Origin: Pyrodictiaceae archaeon
GTDB lineage: Archaea; Thermoproteota; Thermoprotei_A; Sulfolobales; Pyrodictiaceae
Assembly (NCBI GenBank): GCA_027036135.1
Contig: JALVSY010000016.1
Coordinates: 384,001-448,000 of the forward strand
Length of the DNA stretch: 64,000 nucleotides
Direction: 5' to 3'
The position numbers and the translations under genes are program-made. The notes beneath the pieces are model-generated. The model worked only from the letters and a program-made list of their open reading frames with translations, was not told where the DNA came from and did no database searches. Position 1 is the first letter of the stretch. Each line of letters begins with the position of its first letter. This document shows positions 363-16,486 of the stretch, piece by piece.

Positions 363-1271
363 TTACTCTGGCTTGTGGAACGATATGGCGGCATAGCCTA
401 CGGCTATGTCTTCTTCCCCGGTTAGCTGGGCCGAGTTGTAGTACTTCAGCAGCCTTGGCTTGGCTCCAACGCTCTTAGCATACTCCATTAGTGCCGCTAT
501 GGCTCCATAGCCGCATACTGTTGCCCCGGTATCAGTTAGGCGTTTGTAGAACCCCTCGGTGTCTAGCTCGAGGATGCGCTCTATTATTGAGAGGTCGAGC
601 TTCGCTACATTCTCTGCAATGTTCTCGCTGAACACTATGTAGCCGTACATGTAGCCGTGGTGAGTGAAGTCAGAGGATGCTAGGAATACTATCCTTCTAC
701 CAAGCGCCTTAGCTGCCTCAAGAATAGCGCTTGCCATGTCGCGGGCCATGCTGGGCGTGGCGTCCCGGACAGTTATTGGGACTATGGAGAACCCGTCGCC
801 ATAGATGTATTGGAGGAAGGGTAGCTCCACCTCGATGCTGTGCTCCTCTAGGTGGGCTAGGTAGTCGTCAACCACGCGGCTAGTCCTCTTCATAATCTCG
901 TCTATCAGCTCAAGGTCAACAGGAATCTCGCCCAGCGGCGTAAGCCACTTGGCAAACCGCTTAGTAGTCGTGAAGAATCCTCCGTAACCAGTGTGGTTAG
1001 TACCCAGTATAACAAAGGTATCCGGCGCAAGTGTGGTCTCAGCTAGCTCTAGGTAGAAGTGAGCAGCACATGGCCCGGAGTAACTATAGCCAGCGTGGGG
1101 CACGACGCCCCCTACTACGCAGCACTGGTCTCTCCGTGATAGAGGCTTGGGCAGCCTACCTGGACCGAAGCCTTCGCGGAGAAAGCTACTCTCAATAGCT
1201 CTTATCAATTCTCCACGGTCACTGGGATAAAACCCTATCATCGCAGCGTAGGGCTTCCTTACCTCAGTCAA
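363..1271 (-). CDS. amrB: MEMO1 family protein (AmmeMemoRadiSam system protein B)
   Basis: GFYP, VVPHAGYSYSG, GTNHTG, EHSIEVELPFLQ, SSDFTH and TVCGYG motifs. Confidence 0.92.
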   Translation of the reverse strand: MTEVRKPYAAMIGFYPSDRGELIRAIESSFLREGFGPGRLPKPLSRRDQCCVVGGVVPHAGYSYSGPCAAHFYLELAETTLAPDTFVILGTNHTGYGGFFTTTKRFAKWLTPLGEIPVDLELIDEIMKRTSRVVDDYLAHLEEHSIEVELPFLQYIYGDGFSIVPITVRDATPSMARDMASAILEAAKALGRRIVFLASSDFTHHGYMYGYIVFSENIAENVAKLDLSIIERILELDTEGFYKRLTDTGATVCGYGAIAALMEYAKSVGAKPRLLKYYNSAQLTGEEDIAVGYAAISFHKPE

Positions 1272-5383: not shown

Positions 5384-6747
5384 TGCGTCTCCATCCACTT
5401 AATAGCTTTTATGAACCAGCCTATGTCGTGGTAACCCATGGATATCAACATGTATTTACTGCCTTGCCTCCATATTACAATACCTGGTGTACCACGTATA
5501 CCTACGTCTTGCGCGTGTTGAATTGATAGCTCAACGTATTTTGCAGCTGGGCAGGATGGTGTAATGTTGAATTCTTTTTCCAATTTCTTTATTATTGTTG
5601 CTAGTTTTTGCTCGGCTTTCCCGCTTAATATATAACTATATATCTCCTTATATGTTGAATATAATATATTGTAGTAACTCCAAGCATTGTGTGTCTTATT
5701 ATAGTAGCATAGCATAAGTTTATGGAATTCAAATTCTACTTGAGAGTTGTGTACAGGTAGATCAAGTATGTGAATTGTTATTGTGTTGTTTTTAGCGTAT
5801 TGAATTAGCTTAGGCATGACACTAATGTAGAGCTTTGCACAGAAGGGGCACATTATGTCGTCGAAGATGGCTATATGTATCTTGCCGTGTCCTAGCGCAG
5901 GGTGCTTGTCTAAGTAAGGTATCGGCTTGTACTTTATTAGTGCGGCCGGTACGAGGCCTAGCCCAGCTAGTAGCTCTGCAAGGCTATCCTTGTAGTCATA
6001 GTATATGCCTGGCGCTACTTCCCGGAGGTCGGGATTATACTTTGCTAGGTCGGCGTCGCTTTCTGCATAGACAGCAGGATACTCGTCTGGTACTATGTTT
6101 GCGGGCGGCTTGTTGACTACTCGTATATCTTTTATATCGGCGACGAAGATGGCTGATAGCGCTACGGCAAGCCTACCTTTAGCGACTTCAAGGTATTTCT
6201 CGTTAACTTGCGTTCCTGGGGCATTGCCGTTAACTATTATTATCTTTGCCTCGTGGGTGTATCTTGGCGCTCCCTTGCCTAGGTACATTCCTAGCTGTGT
6301 AGCAAAGGAGGCAAAGTAGTCATATCTGAACGGTATGTAGCCGCCGGGCAACGTCTCGTTGAGGACGAAGTCCCGGAGCTTGCCTTTTATCTCACTCATG
6401 TTTATCTTGAACACTAGTGCCGGGTACATTGGTAGACTTGTTAACCCGGTCTCCTTGGCGCTGAGAGCACAGAACTTTGTACCTGGTGGTAGATTACTCG
6501 CTAATTGTTTCTCAACGTACTGGAGAAGTGTGTCCGCGAAATCTTTTTCCCCCTTCTCATATACTATTATAGCTGATGGGCCCTTTAAGCACGCCTCTAG
6601 GCTGGGTTGCTGCGTCGTTGTTGTGGTCACTTTTTCTCCCTTCGTGGCAGAGGAGCTCTTGCTCATTAATAAGTAGGCTGCTATACCACCTACAACTATG
6701 ACTGCGACTAGGACACTGATAACTAGTGTCTTGGACAGGGCTCTCAA
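5380..6747 (-). CDS. Membrane-anchored DsbA/thioredoxin-domain protein
   Basis: N-terminal TM helix and Thr-rich linker; C-terminal DIMCPFC and GIRGTP. Confidence 0.75.
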   Translation of the reverse strand: MRALSKTLVISVLVAVIVVGGIAAYLLMSKSSSATKGEKVTTTTTQQPSLEACLKGPSAIIVYEKGEKDFADTLLQYVEKQLASNLPPGTKFCALSAKETGLTSLPMYPALVFKINMSEIKGKLRDFVLNETLPGGYIPFRYDYFASFATQLGMYLGKGAPRYTHEAKIIIVNGNAPGTQVNEKYLEVAKGRLAVALSAIFVADIKDIRVVNKPPANIVPDEYPAVYAESDADLAKYNPDLREVAPGIYYDYKDSLAELLAGLGLVPAALIKYKPIPYLDKHPALGHGKIHIAIFDDIMCPFCAKLYISVMPKLIQYAKNNTITIHILDLPVHNSQVEFEFHKLMLCYYNKTHNAWSYYNILYSTYKEIYSYILSGKAEQKLATIIKKLEKEFNITPSCPAAKYVELSIQHAQDVGIRGTPGIVIWRQGSKYMLISMGYHDIGWFIKAIKWMETH

Positions 6748-9081: not shown

Positions 9082-9228
9082 AATAACCCGGGGGTTCTTA
9101 GCAAGTTCTTTGCAACAAAAATGCAACTCATTATACTTTGCTATTTAGTGTTCCACGGGAAGGGCGTCAAACCATCGCCTCTAGGGCGGCAATGCAATCT
9201 ATATGTAGCGTCTAAGAGGATATTAGTT

Positions 9229-9486
9229 ATGGAGTTTACAGCTAAGTACCTGGGTACTAGAGCCTTGTCGGCCTCAACTAGTAGAAGTATAAAGCTGGTC
9301 AAGCCTGGTGAGCTGGACCGGGTTCCACCCGGTTATTGGGCTGCTATTATTGATGGCAAGGTGGTTGCTTGGGCTAAGAGTCTTCAAGAGCTATTAATGA
9401 TCATGGAGAGCAAGGGGTACAAGAAAGGCGAGTATGCAGTAGTAAAGGTTCCACCAGACGAGCTATTAGTGGCCGTAGCAGGTTAA
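9229..9486 (+). CDS. DUF5678-like small protein
   Basis: GYWAAIIDGKVVAWAKSLQELL pattern; lies directly upstream of a retropepsin gene. Confidence 0.6.
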   Translation: MEFTAKYLGTRALSASTSRSIKLVKPGELDRVPPGYWAAIIDGKVVAWAKSLQELLMIMESKGYKKGEYAVVKVPPDELLVAVAG

Positions 9487-9502
9487 GTAGGAGATAACAG
9501 CT

Positions 9503-9905
9503 ATGGCTGTGCAACTAGTATTCGACTATGTTGAAAGGCATGGCAGGCTGTATCCATTAATACTTGTGACTCTAAAAGCCCGGGAAGAGCTAACCTTATA
9601 TGCTCTCGTCGATAGTGGTGCCGTTATAAGTCTCTTCCCAGAAGATGTTGCGCATGCTATAGGACTAGACCTTAGCAGAGGAGAGACACTATACTTAACC
9701 GGGGTAGGAGGATATATAAAGGGGAAACTCATCCCGAACGTAAAGGCCATAATAGGGGAATTTAAGCTGGAAATCCCGGTAGTATTTGTGCCATATACCC
9801 CTATAGAACTGGCAGTTCTTGGGAGAAAAAGGCTTCTTTGAAGCCTTTGAGATAACGTTCAGGGAGTGGGAGAAAAAGCTAATAATAAAACTAAGAAGTG
9901 CATAA
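9503..9905 (+). pseudogene. Retropepsin-like aspartic protease with a C-terminal frameshift
   Basis: ALVDSGA catalytic motif and LGR. An extra A in the A5 run near 9826-9830 shifts the natural tail (GFFEAFEITFREWEKKLII) into another frame. Confidence 0.7.
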
Positions 9906-10243: not shown

Positions 10244-10610
10244 ACTTAGGTTGCTCCTTGACGAGAACATCGGGCTGAGAGTGTACCAAGAGCTTAGGAA
10301 ACAAGGGTACCACGTACAGTCAGTTCTTGCAGAACGTAGAGGAGCCTCTGACGAGGAGGTCGTTGAGATGGCTATTAGCCGTGGCAAAATAATAGTGACT
10401 ATGGCTAAGGATTTTTGGATATCTTGCTCAAGCATATAGGCCGCTCGGAGTAGTTATCCTAAGATTAAGAGACCCGAGGATACCTAATAGGCTTAAGGCC
10501 ATTCTAAGGGCACTCCGGCTCAAAGAACAACTATAGGGGCATATAACTATAGTAACTAACTATAGTAACCGACACGAAGATATGGAAACGACCAATCATG
10601 CCACAGTAGT
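10233..10610 (+). pseudogene. DUF5615 PIN-like toxin, degraded
   Basis: LLLDENIG...SDEEV...IVT.KDF, then a frameshift in the T5 run near 10411, a later stop and a short tandem duplication (aactatagtaac). Confidence 0.7.
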
Positions 10611-10793
10611 AAGAGAGCATGAGCTCTTGTCATAGCACTTTAAGAGTGCAGCAAGGCTCGCGTCTTGATAATTTCCATAATAAGGCTGGATTCATCTAAC
10701 TAGGGAGGCTATATAAGTAAAGGAAGCGTTAGTCTATCGATGAGTTTCCTTTAGTTATATGAAGCACTAGGTTACAGATTTTTCATTATTTCA

Positions 10794-11042
10794 TTATGCA
10801 TTGTCTAGCATCTCTGCTACTATCTTTTTCGCGTCAATAACGACTCTAACTCGTTTGCCCTCTAGGTCTTCGAGGATTTCCAAGAGGCTTAGCCCTGCAG
10901 TACCATTCCAGGCCTCGCTATGGATTCTCGTTAGCTCTCTCCAATTCCTCGTATCGATTTTCTCGGGATAAATGAACACGTCGTCACCAGCATATGGATA
11001 TATGTACAGATAACCCTCCACGACCTCAGCTCTGCGCCTCAT
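10794..11042 (-). CDS. Hypothetical protein
   Basis: 82-aa ORF with plausible composition. Confidence 0.55.
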   Translation of the reverse strand: MRRRAEVVEGYLYIYPYAGDDVFIYPEKIDTRNWRELTRIHSEAWNGTAGLSLLEILEDLEGKRVRVVIDAKKIVAEMLDNA

Positions 11043-11142
11043 ACGTCTATAGCCCCAAGAGGATTTGGAATAATAAAGGTAGTACTTATCGTTAGCCTTT
11101 TTGTACAGTACTGCATCCTTACAGTTCTTTTCTGGAGCTTAT

Positions 11143-11220
11143 CTTCTACTCTTTTACATGCCTCCTTTACAAGGATTATAATACGCGAAGAAAAACCCCG
11201 GTATCAACGAGAACAGTCAC
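11143..11220 (-). pseudogene. VapC (PIN) toxin N-terminal remnant
   Basis: GTG ACT GTT CTC GTT GAT ACC GGG GTT = MTVLVDTGV, directly after the antitoxin; sequence then degenerates. Confidence 0.5.
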
Positions 11221-11221
11221 C

Positions 11222-11463
11222 TTAGCCCTCACCGTAGAGTAGCCTGTCCACCTCTTCAGCGTTTGTCTCTTCTATGTCCCGTGCATAGCGTAGAGAGCCT
11301 AGAACAGTCTCCATGTCGCCTTGATGCTTTTCCAGGAACTCCTTCTCGGAACCTCTATAGCCCGTCTAAGGGTCTCGCTAAGACTCCACCCCATGAGCTT
11401 AGCTAGTCTCTCTAACCTCTTCTTATCCTCGATAGAGACCCTGATAGTCGTATACCTAGGCAT
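11222..11463 (-). pseudogene. VapB-type RHH antitoxin, frameshifted
   Basis: MPRYTTIRVSIEDKKRLERLAKLMGWSLSETLRRAIEV, then a shift to EKEFLEKHQG...EEVDRLLYGEG*; GGAGGT RBS. Confidence 0.65.
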
Positions 11464-11674
11464 CGTGACCTCCTCGAGAAGTAGATATGTTCTCCTTTAA
11501 GAATAAACACTACTATCTATATACATGTCAGGGTAGTAGTACGACACGACCACAAAACGGTGAAAGCCACCTCCTTTCCCAGATACAACGACGTATCAAG
11601 CCAAGAGTAGCTATAGGTACCATATAGGCTTTACTATTAGATAATGCCGCTCCTTTGTTTTCTCAACTCTCGTT

Positions 11675-11932: not shown

Positions 11933-12017
11933 TGTTTCCGAGCCTCCAGTTGCTTACTGTTTACTATTTATAAAAATATGAAGCGAAGTATAATTTATTA
12001 TTCCTTATCCTTGTAAT

Positions 12018-12260
12018 TATATAATATATTAAATGGTGTGATATTTCGATTCTATAGAAACATATTATTTTATTAACAAATATATTGTATTTCTTATGAT
12101 TGCGTTTTAGCCTTATAGTGAAGTAGTAAACACACCTCTAACATTGTTTGCTGAATTCTCTTATACAACTCTTTTTATTGGTACTCTTTTCTATACTAGA
12201 GTGGTCTCTTATATATGTTTCTATAGAATCGAAATATCACACCATTTAATATATTATATA
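12018..12260. repeat. Perfect 48-bp inverted repeat (12018-12065 and 12213-12260) with a 147-bp AT-rich spacer
   Basis: tatataatatattaaatggtgtgatatttcgattctatagaaacatat is the exact reverse complement of atatgtttctatagaatcgaaatatcacaccatttaatatattatata (checked base by base). Confidence 0.95.
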
Positions 12261-12272
12261 CATATCTACTAT

Positions 12273-12306
12273 CGCTCTTCTTCTAACGAAGAAAGCGGCT
12301 GAGGGA
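12273..12306 (+). promoter_or_regulatory. Putative 5'-UTR hairpin followed by the RBS of the precursor peptide gene
   Basis: cgct-c-ttcttc/taac/gaagaa-agcg stem-loop, then GAGGGA at 12301-12306, 6 nt before ATG 12313. Confidence 0.5.
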
Positions 12307-12312
12307 TGTGTA

Positions 12313-12417
12313 ATGAAGGTCTTAAAAACCGAATATAAAAATCCCCAAATTCTAAAAGGAATGGAATTGTGTAGTGGAAAAGGAATTATATGTGGTGGTA
12401 ACGCAAGCGTCTACTAA
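12313..12417 (+). CDS. Putative RiPP precursor peptide (34 aa: MKVLKTEYKNPQILKGMELCSGKGIICGGNASVY)
   Basis: Manual translation; RBS present; ends 23 nt before the rSAM start; YxxPxI motif; Cys/Gly-rich C-terminal half. Confidence 0.75.
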   Translation: MKVLKTEYKNPQILKGMELCSGKGIICGGNASVY

Positions 12418-12440
12418 GAAGGTTAGAGAGGTGTGGCAGA

Positions 12441-13928
12441 ATGGCAAACCAATCCATTCTTTTTTCTTCAATAAAATATGTGGTTCATGTACCTTCTCTA
12501 CAGATACAGAAAATGCTTGATCCACAAGTTTTTAAGAAAGAGGTCTCTTTTATTTTCCATCCGTATTCTATGTCGTTTATAGAGGCTTCGTTACAAGAAG
12601 CTGAGATAATTAAACTTCTCGAGGAAGGTGTACCTCTTAATAAAATTAAAGAATTATATGGTGCCGATTCTTTAAGAGTAATTAATGAAGTTGAAGAAAT
12701 AATTAAGGATCTTTATCCCAAAGAAATCATTAAATTTAACAAGCCAACAGTACTATGGTTACTTACATCGCCGTTTTGTAATTTAAGATGCCGCTATTGT
12801 TATACTGCTTCTGGCTCTGCCTTTTGGTCGTCTTCAAGAATATTAAATATTGATGAACTCGTTAAAGCGGTTGAGAAAATACTTGATGCTTTTCCAACAA
12901 TAAAACATATCGCTTTCTTTGGAGGAGGAGAGCCATTATTAAGGCTAGATATTATTAAAGTAATAACTGAAAAATTTGAAAATAATATAGAGATATTCTC
13001 TATTACTACTAATGGTACATTAATTAATAATGATATTATTGAGTTTATAGAAAACTATAAAAATAAGTTTATATTAACTTTGAGTATTGATGGTCCAAGG
13101 ATAGTTAACGACATTAATAGAATATATCCTGACGGTAGAGGCACTTTTAACGATATAGTAAAGGGCATAGAATTGCTAAAAGAGCATGGGCTCATGTTTG
13201 ATATACAGGCGACGTATACAAGAGAAGCTTTCATGTTAGGGTATTCAATGAGCGATATAGCATATTTCCTGAGTAGATTTTCTCCGTATATAATGCTTAG
13301 ACCTTCTGATTACGTTGCAACTCTAGGTGCTGGTGAAAGATTTGAGGATGCTATGTTAGGTTTCATGCTTGCTGATTATGTAGATAAATCAATAATGGAA
13401 ATGCTCAAAAGGGATCCCACATATTATGACCTTGTCATAGCCATGAATATCGCGCAAATTGGTAGACGAGTAATTAAACTCCAGGCTTGTCCGTATACAA
13501 GCTTTATAACCCTTAACGCTGATGGCAGAATTTATACTTGTCATATGTTGACAGATTTTGTTATAGGAAATATTTTAAAAACGTCTAAAAAGGATATTAA
13601 AGAAAAATATGAAAAAGCATTAAAGATTCTAGACATATATACTCAGAAGCTTGACCCTCGCCTTTTCTGGATGCTTACGATGCAAGATATATGTCCAGCA
13701 GAGCTTTATGGCGGGCTAAGCTATGTAAGTAAGGGTGGAAATAAGAAACTCGGCCTTAGACCGTATATAAGGTCCGTCTTAGAGAACTATTGGGACGCCT
13801 TACTTGTTAAAATTTTCAGCTCTGCACGCAATGGAGACCTAGATAGGCTATATGAAAACGTCGGCAAGATGCTTATGGCACGGCGGCAAGGAAGAGAGGG
13901 ATTAAGCCGACTGGTGAATGCATATTGA
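12441..13928 (+). CDS. Radical SAM peptide maturase with putative N-terminal RRE and reduced SPASM/twitch domain
   Basis: CNLRCRYC, FFGGGEPLL, ITTNGTL, LSIDGP...ND..R....GRGTF (anSME/SPASM-type core); C-x16-C (GRIYTC)...IGNI...CP; about 100-aa N-terminal extension; GAGGTG RBS. Confidence 0.88.
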   Translation: MANQSILFSSIKYVVHVPSLQIQKMLDPQVFKKEVSFIFHPYSMSFIEASLQEAEIIKLLEEGVPLNKIKELYGADSLRVINEVEEIIKDLYPKEIIKFNKPTVLWLLTSPFCNLRCRYCYTASGSAFWSSSRILNIDELVKAVEKILDAFPTIKHIAFFGGGEPLLRLDIIKVITEKFENNIEIFSITTNGTLINNDIIEFIENYKNKFILTLSIDGPRIVNDINRIYPDGRGTFNDIVKGIELLKEHGLMFDIQATYTREAFMLGYSMSDIAYFLSRFSPYIMLRPSDYVATLGAGERFEDAMLGFMLADYVDKSIMEMLKRDPTYYDLVIAMNIAQIGRRVIKLQACPYTSFITLNADGRIYTCHMLTDFVIGNILKTSKKDIKEKYEKALKILDIYTQKLDPRLFWMLTMQDICPAELYGGLSYVSKGGNKKLGLRPYIRSVLENYWDALLVKIFSSARNGDLDRLYENVGKMLMARRQGREGLSRLVNAY

Positions 13929-15640
13929 GGAATATGGGAAGACGTTATGTTAAATACGTACTGGGCTTTGCGTACCGGGTTACGCGGAGATACTCGTTAC
14001 TCGTTAGCCTAGTGGCGCTTGTTGTTTGGATTGTTTTGCTCCTTGTCTTCTTCTACTACACACTTGTTATGAAGGGCTTCATAGACTACCTCGTGTCCCT
14101 CCTCCAGGCTACTAGGACTAGCTGGTTCTATGGAATCCTTCGCTACGCTGCTATCTTGCTCGGGTTATGGGGCCTGAAGTATGGCTTGAATATTCTTGGA
14201 GAGTACTCGTTGAGGCTTACTGGCTTAGCGGCTCTAGAGGGCTTGGCTACCGAGTTTATTAGGAGCCTTGCCTGGGCTAGGCCGAGCAAGCTCCCCGAGA
14301 GAGGTGATATTGTTGGCCGCTTCATGTCTGATCTTAGCCGTGTATCGGAGCTGGGAGGTTTTCTTGCCTCCCTTGGAGTCCAGGTAGCTAGGATAGTTAT
14401 TGGCTCGGTGCTCCTCTATGTTCTCAGCCCAGTTCTCTTCGCGGTCACCTTGGTAATTGTGCCGATCTATTATGTTGTGTTCAGGGTTAGTAGTGGGAAG
14501 CTAGCAGCTGTCTCCGAGAAGGAGAGACGAGCCTTCTCGAAATTATCGATGGTTTTCCGGGAGTTTGTTGAGGGTATTCTCCACGTGAAGACTCTGTCTC
14601 GTATGCGTAGTTATCTTGGCTCGGTTTCGGAGAGGAATGTTCGCTCGTGGGGGTCTAGGCTCCGTAGCGTGTTCTTCTACGATGTGTTCTTTAACCAGAG
14701 CTTTAATAGCCTATACGACATAGTGAGGCTAGTTGTGCTGATAATCGGCGGCTTCCTGGTAGCGAGGGGCGAGACAACTATTGGCAGCGTAATAGCGTTC
14801 ACGAATGCTGTCTACAACGTATTCGAGCCAATAGCGAACATATCGTACTCCTTCGCAGCCCTCGGCGAGCTCTATCCCTATGTGAAGAGAGTTGAGGAGA
14901 TACTAAGACTAGAACCTGAGCGCGATACTGGTGAGAAACTAGGCCGTGTAGACAGCATTGAGGCACGCGATGTCGTGGTAGAGGTGGATGATCACGTACT
15001 ACTCAATGGGGCATCGCTGACCGTGAAGAGAGGCCGCATATACGCGGTTATGGGGTCCACGGGGGCCGGGAAGACGACGCTTCTCCTAACTCTTATCAGG
15101 CTCTATGAACCCGGCAAGGGAGTGATAAGGATAAATGGTCGCGATTATCGTGTCTATAGTGTTTCCTCTCTCCGCGAGAAAATAATCTACTTGCCTCAGC
15201 AGCCCCTCGTGCTCCGAGCAAGTATTAGAGACAACATAGCTCTCGGCGAGCCCTTGCCAGACGATGCAATTTGGCGTGCACTAAGACTAGCAGCCGTGGA
15301 CTTCGTCACGAGCCTAGACGAGGTCGTGGACCCATCGAAGCTGAGTGACGGGCAGAAGCAGAGACTGGCACTAGCCCGGGCCCTAGCCCATAGCCCGGAG
15401 GTGTTGCTCCTGGATGAGGCGTTGAACGCTGTGGATGAGCAGACAGAGGCGCGTATACTAGCGAGCCTGCGCAACGAGGTGGCAAGTGATAGGCTGGGGG
15501 CAGTAGTGATTGTAACGCATCGCTCAGCAACACTGAGTAGCGTTGACCATGTATACGTGTTGGAGAATGGAAGGGTGATGTGTGAGGGGGAGCCGCGAGG
15601 AGTGCTCGGAAAATGCAATAGGGCAGCGCTGCATGTGTAG
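13925..15640 (+). CDS. ABC exporter, fused permease and ATPase
   Basis: N-terminal TM domain; Walker A GSTGAGKT; signature-like LSDGQKQR; Walker B LLLDE; overlaps the rSAM stop. Confidence 0.9.
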   Translation: MRNMGRRYVKYVLGFAYRVTRRYSLLVSLVALVVWIVLLLVFFYYTLVMKGFIDYLVSLLQATRTSWFYGILRYAAILLGLWGLKYGLNILGEYSLRLTGLAALEGLATEFIRSLAWARPSKLPERGDIVGRFMSDLSRVSELGGFLASLGVQVARIVIGSVLLYVLSPVLFAVTLVIVPIYYVVFRVSSGKLAAVSEKERRAFSKLSMVFREFVEGILHVKTLSRMRSYLGSVSERNVRSWGSRLRSVFFYDVFFNQSFNSLYDIVRLVVLIIGGFLVARGETTIGSVIAFTNAVYNVFEPIANISYSFAALGELYPYVKRVEEILRLEPERDTGEKLGRVDSIEARDVVVEVDDHVLLNGASLTVKRGRIYAVMGSTGAGKTTLLLTLIRLYEPGKGVIRINGRDYRVYSVSSLREKIIYLPQQPLVLRASIRDNIALGEPLPDDAIWRALRLAAVDFVTSLDEVVDPSKLSDGQKQRLALARALAHSPEVLLLDEALNAVDEQTEARILASLRNEVASDRLGAVVIVTHRSATLSSVDHVYVLENGRVMCEGEPRGVLGKCNRAALHV

Positions 15641-15667: not shown

Positions 15668-16486
15668 TTATCTCGTCTTCGGCTTTATGACTAGCTTGTC
15701 GCTTATCCCTACTCCTAGCTTCTCGGCTGCGCTGCCAAGGTTTATTGCTAGCTCGGGGAACCCTAGGCTATTAGTGTAGAATACTAGCTCGCCTGGCGAA
15801 GCGGCACTGAACACTGGCAGGCACTTGGCCTCGAACCTGCCAGTACTTGTGATTACTTCTACCCTGCTGCCTCCCTTGCTGCATAGTTTCTCTATGCACT
15901 CTTCCTCTAGGCCTAGTGCAACGTTGCCGAAATGATCTATGTAGACAGCCTCTGCCTCAACCTCCTCGCCTCTACAAGGCTTTCTAAGGCTCAGCTTGAC
16001 TAGCTCGTCCCTGGGCAGCTCGTGGCCCAGCGAGGTTATTGGTGTGCCTAGTGCTAGGAGGGTCGCTGCGGGCGCGAACACGTCTCTTCCATGGAAGCTC
16101 CTTGAAACGGGTTTGAGGAATACCGCCTCATTATCAATCACGTGTGCTCTTTCTATCCCGTCGCTGCTAGCTGCTGGGTAAAGCACACCGTTATCCGGCC
16201 CGACGAAGTAATAGTTCCTAGTAGCAATGGCTACTGCTTTACGCTCAGTACCTACCCCGGGATCCACGACGACAAGGAAAACAGTGCCTCGTGGAAAGTA
16301 CTTGTAGCTCGTATAGAGCACATAGGCCCCAGCTACAATGCTGAAGGCTGGCACATCGTGAGTAATATCAACTACGCGTACTCTCCCCCTACCAATGCGC
16401 TCAATAACAGCCCTTACTATCCCCACGTAGGGGTCACGCCACCCAAAATCAGTCATGAAGCCGATTAGCGGCTGTGGATTAATCAC
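15668..16486 (-). CDS. SAM hydroxide adenosyltransferase (DUF62, SAM hydrolase/halogenase family)
   Basis: TDFGWRDPYVG, VVDPGVGTER, GPDNGVL, SFHGRDVFAP and YIDHFGNV motifs. Confidence 0.93.
   Translation of the reverse strand: MINPQPLIGFMTDFGWRDPYVGIVRAVIERIGRGRVRVVDITHDVPAFSIVAGAYVLYTSYKYFPRGTVFLVVVDPGVGTERKAVAIATRNYYFVGPDNGVLYPAASSDGIERAHVIDNEAVFLKPVSRSFHGRDVFAPAATLLALGTPITSLGHELPRDELVKLSLRKPCRGEEVEAEAVYIDHFGNVALGLEEECIEKLCSKGGSRVEVITSTGRFEAKCLPVFSAASPGELVFYTNSLGFPELAINLGSAAEKLGVGISDKLVIKPKTR

Follow-up and report, generated by a model that had tools for sequence, protein, structure and literature searches.

The thioether synthase CteB has an open iron site that binds a Cys residue of the substrate. 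SPASM domains of radical SAM enzymes possess, according to the accessible part of PMC10878394, seven Cys residues, including the motif CX2CX5CX3C, that bind two auxiliary clusters; three of them hold the first cluster, and the third of these is the Cys that ends the motif. The same text describes the GYW motif as unique to cyclopropyl synthases, where its Tyr ligates the first auxiliary cluster, and TigE as forming methyl-cyclopropylglycine from Ile. The leaders recognized by the RREs of lasso and LPP systems carry the motif [Y/W]xxPx[L/V/I/F/A], as stated in the available excerpts of PMC13381572 and PMC10368454. For archaea, RiPP clusters have been widely predicted and almost no products are known, as far as the accessible part of PMC12144867 goes, and a minimal precursor-maturase-ABC trio is described in hyperthermophiles in the available portion of a preprint (bioRxiv 10.64898/2026.07.27.741052). 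Our literature search found no paper on the enzyme and peptide family described here; the supplementary cluster lists of PMC12144867 may include its loci.

The locus analyzed here lies in a 64,000-nt stretch of DNA from a Pyrodictiaceae archaeon, referred to as the window. It contains a 34-aa ORF with the translation MKVLKTEYKNPQILKGMELCSGKGIICGGNASVY and a stop codon at 12415-12417. Its position and reading and the GAGGGA motif upstream were confirmed from the sequence as given in the original prediction, and the division of the peptide into a leader-like half and a Cys-rich half was upheld as well (Table 1). The peptide has two Cys residues in total, which are separated by six residues, and seven residues follow the second one. 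Inspection of the sequence also agreed with the prediction that neither a CxxxD motif nor the six-Cys pattern of SCIFF precursors is present. The 34-codon frame alone has little weight, since 138 ORFs of at least 25 aa overlap the 14 kb between positions 6000 and 20000; the case is carried by context and conservation. As to context, only 23 nt separate the peptide ORF from a downstream gene on the same strand that encodes a radical SAM peptide-maturase-like protein.

Searches with the peptide itself gave no match in Pfam and NCBIfam and only scores of at most 0.80 in the ESM Atlas, and no second copy was found in the same genome. The peptide had been called unannotated. This holds, since neither the window peptide nor its two counterparts described below, the L087 peptide and the G077 candidate, were found among 15 billion predicted proteins. 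When the whole open frame aligned with these two peptides was used as the query, the protein collection again gave no match.

Table 1. Features of the peptide locus, with positions in the window unless enzyme residues are given.
Feature	Position	Strand	Evidence or remarks
AT-rich 2.0-kb peptide and radical SAM module	11936..13954	+	blastn borders, contig junctions, GC drop
Perfect 48-nt inverted repeat	arms 12018-12065, 12213-12260		147-nt spacer; arms 100% complementary
Shine-Dalgarno-like GAGGGA	12301-12306	+	6 nt before peptide ATG
Precursor peptide gene (predicted), 34 aa	12313..12417 (ATG at 12313)	+	leader-like half with Y8-K-N-P11 and L14-x-G16; Cys/Gly-rich half with C20-S-G22 and C27-G-G29
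Radical SAM peptide maturase (predicted), 495 aa	12441..13928	+	Pfam, AlphaFold2 model, CteB best solved relative
RRE-like domain	residues ~14-90 (12480-12710)	+	AlphaFold2 model
CxxxCxxC, C113/C117/C120	12777-12800	+	within radical SAM enzyme
Single auxiliary-cluster site (predicted) C350, C367, C418	13488-13490, 13539-13541, 13692-13694	+	Cys inventory of the enzyme
Family-specific C-terminal helices	enzyme residues 441-483	+	AlphaFold2 model
ABC exporter, 571 aa	13925..15640, likely start ATG 13934	+	Pfam ABC_membrane and ABC_tran; fused membrane and ATPase domains

The 495-aa enzyme matched the Pfam family Radical_SAM with an E-value of 7.7e-22. SPASM reached 18.2 bits, which is under the cut-off of 21.5, and PqqD gave no match at an E-value of 0.1. 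Among the NCBIfam matches, of which the best 25 of 88 were considered, PapB (1e-34), CcpM, ScfB-related, anSME and SCIFF models ranked highest, all of them far under their cut-offs. The PapB model NF047865, for example, scored 120.3 bits (cut-off 340) and the SCIFF maturase model TIGR03974 87.3 bits (cut-off 425). Since no NCBIfam family cut-off was reached, the chemistry of the enzyme is not transferable by homology.

An AlphaFold2 model of the enzyme, calculated from a six-row alignment (pLDDT 75.8, pTM 0.80), consisted of a domain with the order strand-strand-strand-helix-helix-helix (residues 16-89), a radical SAM barrel and a C-terminal helical region. With this model, Foldseek ranked CteB first (E 8e-13, 477 columns), followed by TigE, SkfB and anSME. 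VIA-align gave Z scores of 22.4 for ChlB and 22.1 for anSME on the core of the model. For the whole architecture, it gave a Z score of 20.8 for CteB (rmsd 5.2, 385 residues aligned, model residues 12-462) and of 20.5 for TigE (model residues 5-463). The epimerase EpeE reached a Z score of 12.5. In a sequence search of solved structures, CteB was the best match far above the others (E 5.6e-34), with SkfB at 3e-10. C350 and C367-H368 of the enzyme align with the Cys...Cys-His hairpin of CteB. Taken together, the enzyme resembles peptide maturases, most of all the thioether synthase CteB.

Binding of the peptide to the N-terminal domain of the maturase had been set as a test of the original prediction. 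In the model, the first ~90 residues form an RRE-like fold with three strands and three helices, and RREs bind the leader between strand 3 and helix 3; the first strand consists of the single residue 16, the other two span residues 35-40 and 45-50, and the helices cover residues 51-61, 66-73, and 76-89. The isolated domain was less convincing. When it was folded alone (pLDDT 68.5), its top matches were TbiB1, CteB, and SuiB, all of them weak with E-values of at least 0.055. TbiB1, a lasso RRE bound to its leader, was matched with an E-value of 0.055, and the superposition with the N-domain of CteB had an rmsd of 2.8 over 83 columns. Consequently, the assignment to the RREs rests on topology, whole-length alignments, and weak top ranks.

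The enzyme has six Cys residues, three of which are located after residue 330. In 18 family members, C113, C117, C120, and C350 were invariant, C367 and C418 were each found in 17, and neither CX2CX5CX3C nor the GYW motif of cyclopropyl synthases was found in any of them. The seven Cys residues including CX2CX5CX3C that define a SPASM domain are not all present in the enzyme. With only six Cys residues it offers room for one auxiliary cluster and not for the two of SPASM. The Cys inventory suggests that the family has kept the three ligands of the first auxiliary cluster and lost the second cluster, and we infer that it represents a SPASM enzyme minus the second auxiliary cluster rather than a relative of SkfB.

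The enzyme family proved to be small. Among 5.8 billion proteins, a word-indexed search revealed four close relatives with 60, 42, 39, and 35% identity; the next match had 102 bits. When 1.84 billion representatives were searched exhaustively with a profile, 17 proteins had at least 267 bits, followed by a smooth fall into generic radical SAM enzymes, and 589 proteins in total had an E-value of at most 1e-30. The members originate from a Thermoprotei MAG, a Pyrobaculum sp., Thermococcus litoralis DSM 5473, other Thermococcus and a Methanomicrobia-labelled MAG. The protein of T. litoralis (P0281; OCC_06651 / WP_004067621, 490 aa) shares 39% identity with the enzyme. In whole genomes, the family was detected in one of 61 relatives, two of 401 genomes of a phylum sample, two of 351 of the class and, around the Pyrobaculum-like genome G077, in one of 62 of its order and one of 120 of its class. 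A search of 325 whole genomes gave two close enzyme matches. These genome sets overlap, and the only carriers found in them were G000, G529, and G077. Scans with the enzyme alignment identified one close locus, L087, among 80 metagenome loci listed, and no close locus among 80 genome loci or 79 viral loci listed. The peptide and the enzyme probably represent a rare peptide-natural-product system of hot-vent archaea.

Three loci with the enzyme family were recovered, namely the window, L087, which is the same contig as in genome G529, and L167, the locus of G077. A small ORF, the enzyme gene and an ABC exporter gene were grouped in all three. In L087, a 35-aa ORF with the sequence MNIKYVETTYKNPEALVGIMLCSGFIGCGGKASPL is located 142 nt upstream of the enzyme gene on the opposite strand, and AGGGTG stands 5 nt before its ATG. 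A tblastn search of the 5-kb L087 locus with the window peptide gave a match with an E-value of 2e-8 and 56% identity in a 32-residue alignment. In a six-frame Smith-Waterman comparison, the highest score was 82, compared to 31.6 ± 3.8 for shuffled sequences, none of which (0/300) reached 82. Y-K-N-P, L-x-G, L-C-S-G, and C-G-G-x-A-S are common to both peptides. The peptide is better conserved than the enzyme between the two loci, with 56% versus 35-37% identity. Conservation of the Tyr, Pro, and Cys positions at homologous loci had been set as a test of the original prediction, and the L087 peptide, the sole clear ortholog among the loci recovered, has retained all four residues, Y8, P11, C20, and C27. 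The window and L087 both show the generic hallmark of a RiPP locus, a conserved small precursor gene beside a maturase gene. We conclude that 12313-12417 is a real, conserved small-peptide gene.

In L167, a 33-aa ORF occupies the same divergent position as the ORF in L087 and encodes a peptide with C-C-G-x3-C-G-G, but without Tyr. In shuffle tests, its score was reached by 103 of 2000 shuffles against the window peptide and by 24 of 2000 against the L087 peptide. From its sequence it may be a third peptide of the family, which we regard as tentative. In the alignment of the three peptides including this tentative candidate, the Cys pair represents the most conserved residues of the core and Ile25 is invariant. 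Two details of the original prediction were not borne out by these comparisons. The core had been described as C-x6-C, but the gap of six residues in the window peptide is reduced to five in the L087 peptide and the G077 candidate, so that the conserved pattern is C-x-G-x(3,4)-C-G-G. The C-terminal Tyr had been considered as a partner in the cross-link. However, the window peptide ends with Val-Tyr, the L087 peptide with Pro-Leu, and the G077 candidate with Lys-Thr, and the replacement of Tyr by Leu and Thr makes a Tyr-based cross-link unlikely for the family. Another sequence in L167, an off-frame 40-aa ORF at 572-694 (-) within the ABC gene that contains L-C-S-G-x-G-C-x-x-C-x-G, matched the window peptide with an E-value of 0.038 and was judged to be a chance match.

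The genome G292, sister to G077, shows a decayed form of the cassette. In its locus L263, positions 2873-2885 correspond to 1377-2487 of L167, which means that the ends of the enzyme gene are kept and 1.1 kb of its interior are lost. The candidate peptide ORF has no start and no intact frame, and the flanks are 87-94% identical to those of G077. The cassette of G077 predates the split from G292 and is under loss in the latter. The joint decay of the enzyme gene and the candidate peptide ORF fits a linked function.

The interaction of the peptide with the enzyme was modelled using the alignments of the enzyme (six rows) and the peptide (three rows), both of them shallow, with two 4Fe-4S clusters and SAM as ligands. 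The complex had an ipSAE of 0.77 (0.77, 0.76, and 0.80 in individual runs), whereas the best of three controls had 0.00. The runs shared at least 63% of the contacts, and the pLDDT of the partner was at least 58. Of 80 solved complexes, 58 reached the mark used for calibration of such scores, as did 2 of 110 mismatched pairs; this calibration is only rough in the present case because of the shallow custom alignments and the ligands included. Since the structure of CteB with a peptide (5WGG) has been solved, the pass may reflect likeness and not binding by the window copy. The interface comprised residues 1-9, 11, 13-20, and 23 of the peptide. On the side of the enzyme it included residues 37-38, 44-49, and 80-94 of the RRE, the helices 331-343 and 458-479, and residues 351, 354-355, 367, and 416 beside the Cys residues of the auxiliary cluster. 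Residues 1-5 of the peptide lay on the RRE strand 45-49 and helix 80-91, with residues 2-4 pairing with enzyme residues 45-48 and 87 in the RRE groove. Residues 6-8 and 14 contacted enzyme residues 338-341, 458-471, and 474-475.

Modelling of the peptide with the maturase had been suggested as a check of the RRE-leader hypothesis, and the outcome was mixed. The modelled complex was clearly separated from the controls, but residues 1-5 and not Y-K-N-P were placed in the RRE groove; Y8 and L14 contacted enzyme residues 338-343 and 458-479. The match of YKNPQI to the RRE-binding leader motif was upheld, and YKNPEA of the L087 peptide fits it too. The motif [Y/W]xxPx[L/V/I/F/A] is thus present in both clear peptides of the family and absent from the G077 candidate. 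In summary, the model supports a leader-type binding of the peptide by the enzyme.

The peptide and enzyme genes form an accessory module. When the window was compared by blastn with the congeners G001 and G002, homology ended at 11935/11953 and restarted at 13955, at about the tenth codon of the ABC gene; the first ~9 codons of this gene belong to the inserted segment. At the site of the module, G001 and G002 possess ~230 nt of unrelated intergenic DNA with normal GC content. Across 12000-13500 of the window, the GC content is 0.31-0.34, compared to 0.45-0.57 in the flanks. GC3 is 0.31 for the peptide gene and 0.29 for the enzyme gene, compared to 0.59 for the ABC gene and 0.47-0.59 for the neighbouring genes. 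A GC3 step was also found in L167 (0.24 and 0.23 for the peptide and enzyme genes versus 0.63 for the ABC gene) and, in a milder form, in L087 (0.31 and 0.34 versus 0.46). In these three distant genomes, the step in codon usage coincides exactly with the junction of the enzyme and ABC genes. The ABC gene is resident in the genus; its copies in G001, G002, and G004 are 94, 91, and 74% identical, and none of the three has the enzyme gene upstream. For the ABC gene of G529, the other genomes of its family contained only 36%-identical matches (2 of 62 genomes), so that an insertion boundary cannot be drawn there.

In vent-metagenome contigs of three studies, the module was nearly unchanged, with two variant sites listed, neither of them in the peptide. 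In the runs X3 and X5, contigs joined 11934/5 to 13955/8 and had loose ends matching sequence of the G001/G002 type. These contigs lack the module but come from samples in which it is also present; the module is therefore found in some and missing from other close relatives that co-occur. Judged by composition and by the three congeners, a gain of the module in the lineage of the window is more probable than its loss from the sister species. The module may not be under steady selection, as it was missing from almost all of the relatives that were searched and is decaying in one lineage.

Within the module, the right arm of the perfect inverted repeat ends 53 nt before the ATG of the peptide gene and has TATA-like runs inside. 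The repeat occurs as a single copy in the genome and is absent from 28 other genomes of the family and from viral contigs, for which reasons we did not adopt an interpretation as a MITE. Contigs from the runs X4, X5, and X8 reverse their direction at the repeat. With arms of this length, it is doubtful whether contigs can show how the spacer is oriented, and we do not regard them as evidence for an inversion of the spacer. Rfam and tRNA scans of the window gave no match. Upstream of the module, the ~1.2-kb region 10436-11674 has a normal GC content and no ORF of at least 90 aa on either strand.

The ABC exporter contains no peptidase domain, and no gene for a leader protease is present in the module. 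The other neighbours, encoding an M32 carboxypeptidase, a DUF5678 protein, a retropepsin-like protein, a SAM hydroxide adenosyltransferase, and a PIN protein, are all located outside the module. Two of them, the genes for the DUF5678 protein (121 aa) and the retropepsin-like aspartyl protease (112 aa), are small and adjacent to each other (9121-9841). The SAM hydroxide adenosyltransferase gene at 15668-16486 (-) is oriented convergently to the ABC gene. Since G002 (93%) and G004 (73%) have it as well, it is a resident gene.

The best explanation for these data, to which we assign a probability of about 0.55 as a whole, is a RiPP pathway in which the 34-aa peptide is the precursor and would be co-transcribed with an RRE-containing radical SAM maturase. 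That the peptide is the substrate of the adjacent enzyme appears highly probable, whereas thioether formation as the type of chemistry is a tentative proposal with somewhat less than even odds. According to this explanation, the N-terminal half of the peptide would dock to the enzyme, with residues 1-5 in the groove between strand and helix of the RRE and the conserved residues Y8 and L14 packing on the conserved enzyme helices 331-343 and 458-479. Docking would feed the Cys/Gly-rich half into the active site. Two clusters would take part in catalysis, namely the SAM cluster and one auxiliary [4Fe-4S] cluster, which is bound by only three Cys residues and thereby keeps an open iron site as in CteB. 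The most likely products would be one or two intramolecular thioether bridges starting from Cys20 and/or Cys27. The modified peptide would presumably leave the cell via the adjacent ABC exporter.

A substrate role of the peptide is also compatible with another chemistry, such as a carbon-carbon or cyclopropyl-type linkage at the Ile preceding the second Cys, epimerization or Cys oxidation. We consider this somewhat unlikely. TigE and CteB fit the whole enzyme model almost equally well (Z 20.5 and 20.8, respectively), ChlB and anSME reach Z 22 on the core and EpeE 12.5, Ile25 is invariant in the alignment of the three peptides, and no cut-off of a thioether family was reached. On the other hand, the two Cys residues are the most conserved ones of the core, the closest sequence relatives of the enzyme are all Cys-thioether maturases, and the lack of the GYW motif in all 18 family members speaks against a cyclopropyl synthase. 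A mycofactocin-like modification of the C-terminal Val-Tyr, resulting in a redox cofactor instead of a secreted peptide, is barely credible. Mycofactocin precursors end with Val-Tyr as does the window peptide, but the L087 peptide (Pro-Leu) and the G077 candidate (Lys-Thr) do not. Furthermore, no mycofactocin maturase model was present in the best 25 of 88 NCBIfam matches, and an exporter gene follows the enzyme gene in all three loci.

Other explanations would deny a function of the module or of the peptide in this host. The module might be a passenger, either acquired recently or in decay, with genes that are intact but unexpressed or non-functional. Its GC3 of 0.29-0.31 compared to 0.47-0.59 in the neighbouring genes, its absence from all three congeners that keep the ABC gene, the contigs without the module from the same samples and the deletion of the homologous enzyme gene in G292 are in line with this idea. 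It appears nevertheless improbable, as both reading frames are intact and preceded by ribosome-binding sites, the copies of the module in runs of three studies are almost the same (two variant sites listed), and the motifs of the peptide have been retained although the enzymes are very distant from each other, which speaks for functional selection. The possibility that the ORF is a chance frame and that the enzyme has another substrate gains something from the abundance of small ORFs (138 of at least 25 aa in 14 kb) and from the lack of a match to any known family. We regard it as very improbable, because L087 has a counterpart at the equivalent position (E 2e-8, 0/300 shuffles) and the modelled complex passes the controls.

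Judged from sequence, the system described here, with the peptide as a RiPP precursor and the enzyme as its maturase, would operate in the manner of a thioether-type radical SAM RiPP pathway, although it falls under none of the existing family definitions. It is testable, as it offers a conserved precursor motif, a cluster inventory fixed by six Cys residues and a family member from an organism in culture, Thermococcus litoralis DSM 5473. It raises the question of whether thioether-type chemistry can run on the first auxiliary cluster alone. The absence of the peptides from the collection of 15 billion proteins means that such precursors escape gene callers entirely, and the genes for the peptide and the maturase come and go together beside a stable exporter gene. 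A broader scenario, which as a whole we consider doubtful, is that a two-gene cassette, consisting of the 34-aa precursor and a maturase without the second auxiliary cluster, is mobile among hyperthermophilic archaea (Thermoprotei, Pyrobaculum-like, Thermococcus, and Methanomicrobia-labelled MAGs), docks directly upstream of resident ABC genes and makes use of these for export. In this case it would provide the first RiPP described from Thermoproteota, with two rings formed on C-x-G-x3-4-C-G-G by an enzyme with a single auxiliary cluster, a pattern unseen in sacti- and ranthipeptides.

Comparison with known systems sets the family apart in different respects. Mycofactocin differs in that the C-terminal Val-Tyr is found only in the window peptide and not in L087 or G077. 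With lasso and LPP leaders the peptides share the motif, as seen in YKNPQI and YKNPEA, and the best match of the isolated N-domain, although weak, was TbiB1 (E 0.055). However, the complex model places residues 1-5 and not Y-K-N-P in the RRE groove, and genes for a lasso cyclase (C) or a leader peptidase (B2) are not present in the module. The CrpC/CrpA system of Methanococcus voltae, as described in the accessible part of PMC13692751, likewise has an archaeal host, an RRE-bearing radical SAM enzyme and a Cys-rich product, but CrpC is reported there to have three clusters and to modify a large protein. The sboA-albA-albC genes of Thermococcus are reported, in the source as far as it is accessible, to be close homologs of those for bacterial subtilosin, with three Cys residues and Phe acceptors. 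Compared to this description, the window peptide is shorter and has two Cys residues with seven residues after the second; no AlbA-type model was among the best 25 of 88 NCBIfam matches of the enzyme. Twitch-domain enzymes (SkfB, BtrN, MoaA) resemble the enzyme in having one auxiliary cluster and a shortened SPASM-like domain, and SkfB, a RiPP maturase, likewise contains an RRE and forms thioethers; its structure (6EFN) matched the enzyme model with a Z score of 14.9. In sequence, SkfB is nevertheless a much weaker match than CteB (E 3e-10 versus 5.6e-34). The CteB/SCIFF-type and PapB-type maturases of sacti- and ranthipeptides share the N-terminal RRE, the radical SAM barrel, the auxiliary Cys...Cys-His hairpin and a short Cys-containing precursor gene adjoining the enzyme gene. 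In contrast to SCIFF and PapB precursors, the window peptide has two Cys residues instead of six and no CxxxD motif, and in contrast to these maturases, the window enzyme possesses three auxiliary Cys residues without CX2CX5CX3C, is missing the second auxiliary cluster, and is characterized by family-specific C-terminal helices and hyperthermophilic archaeal hosts.
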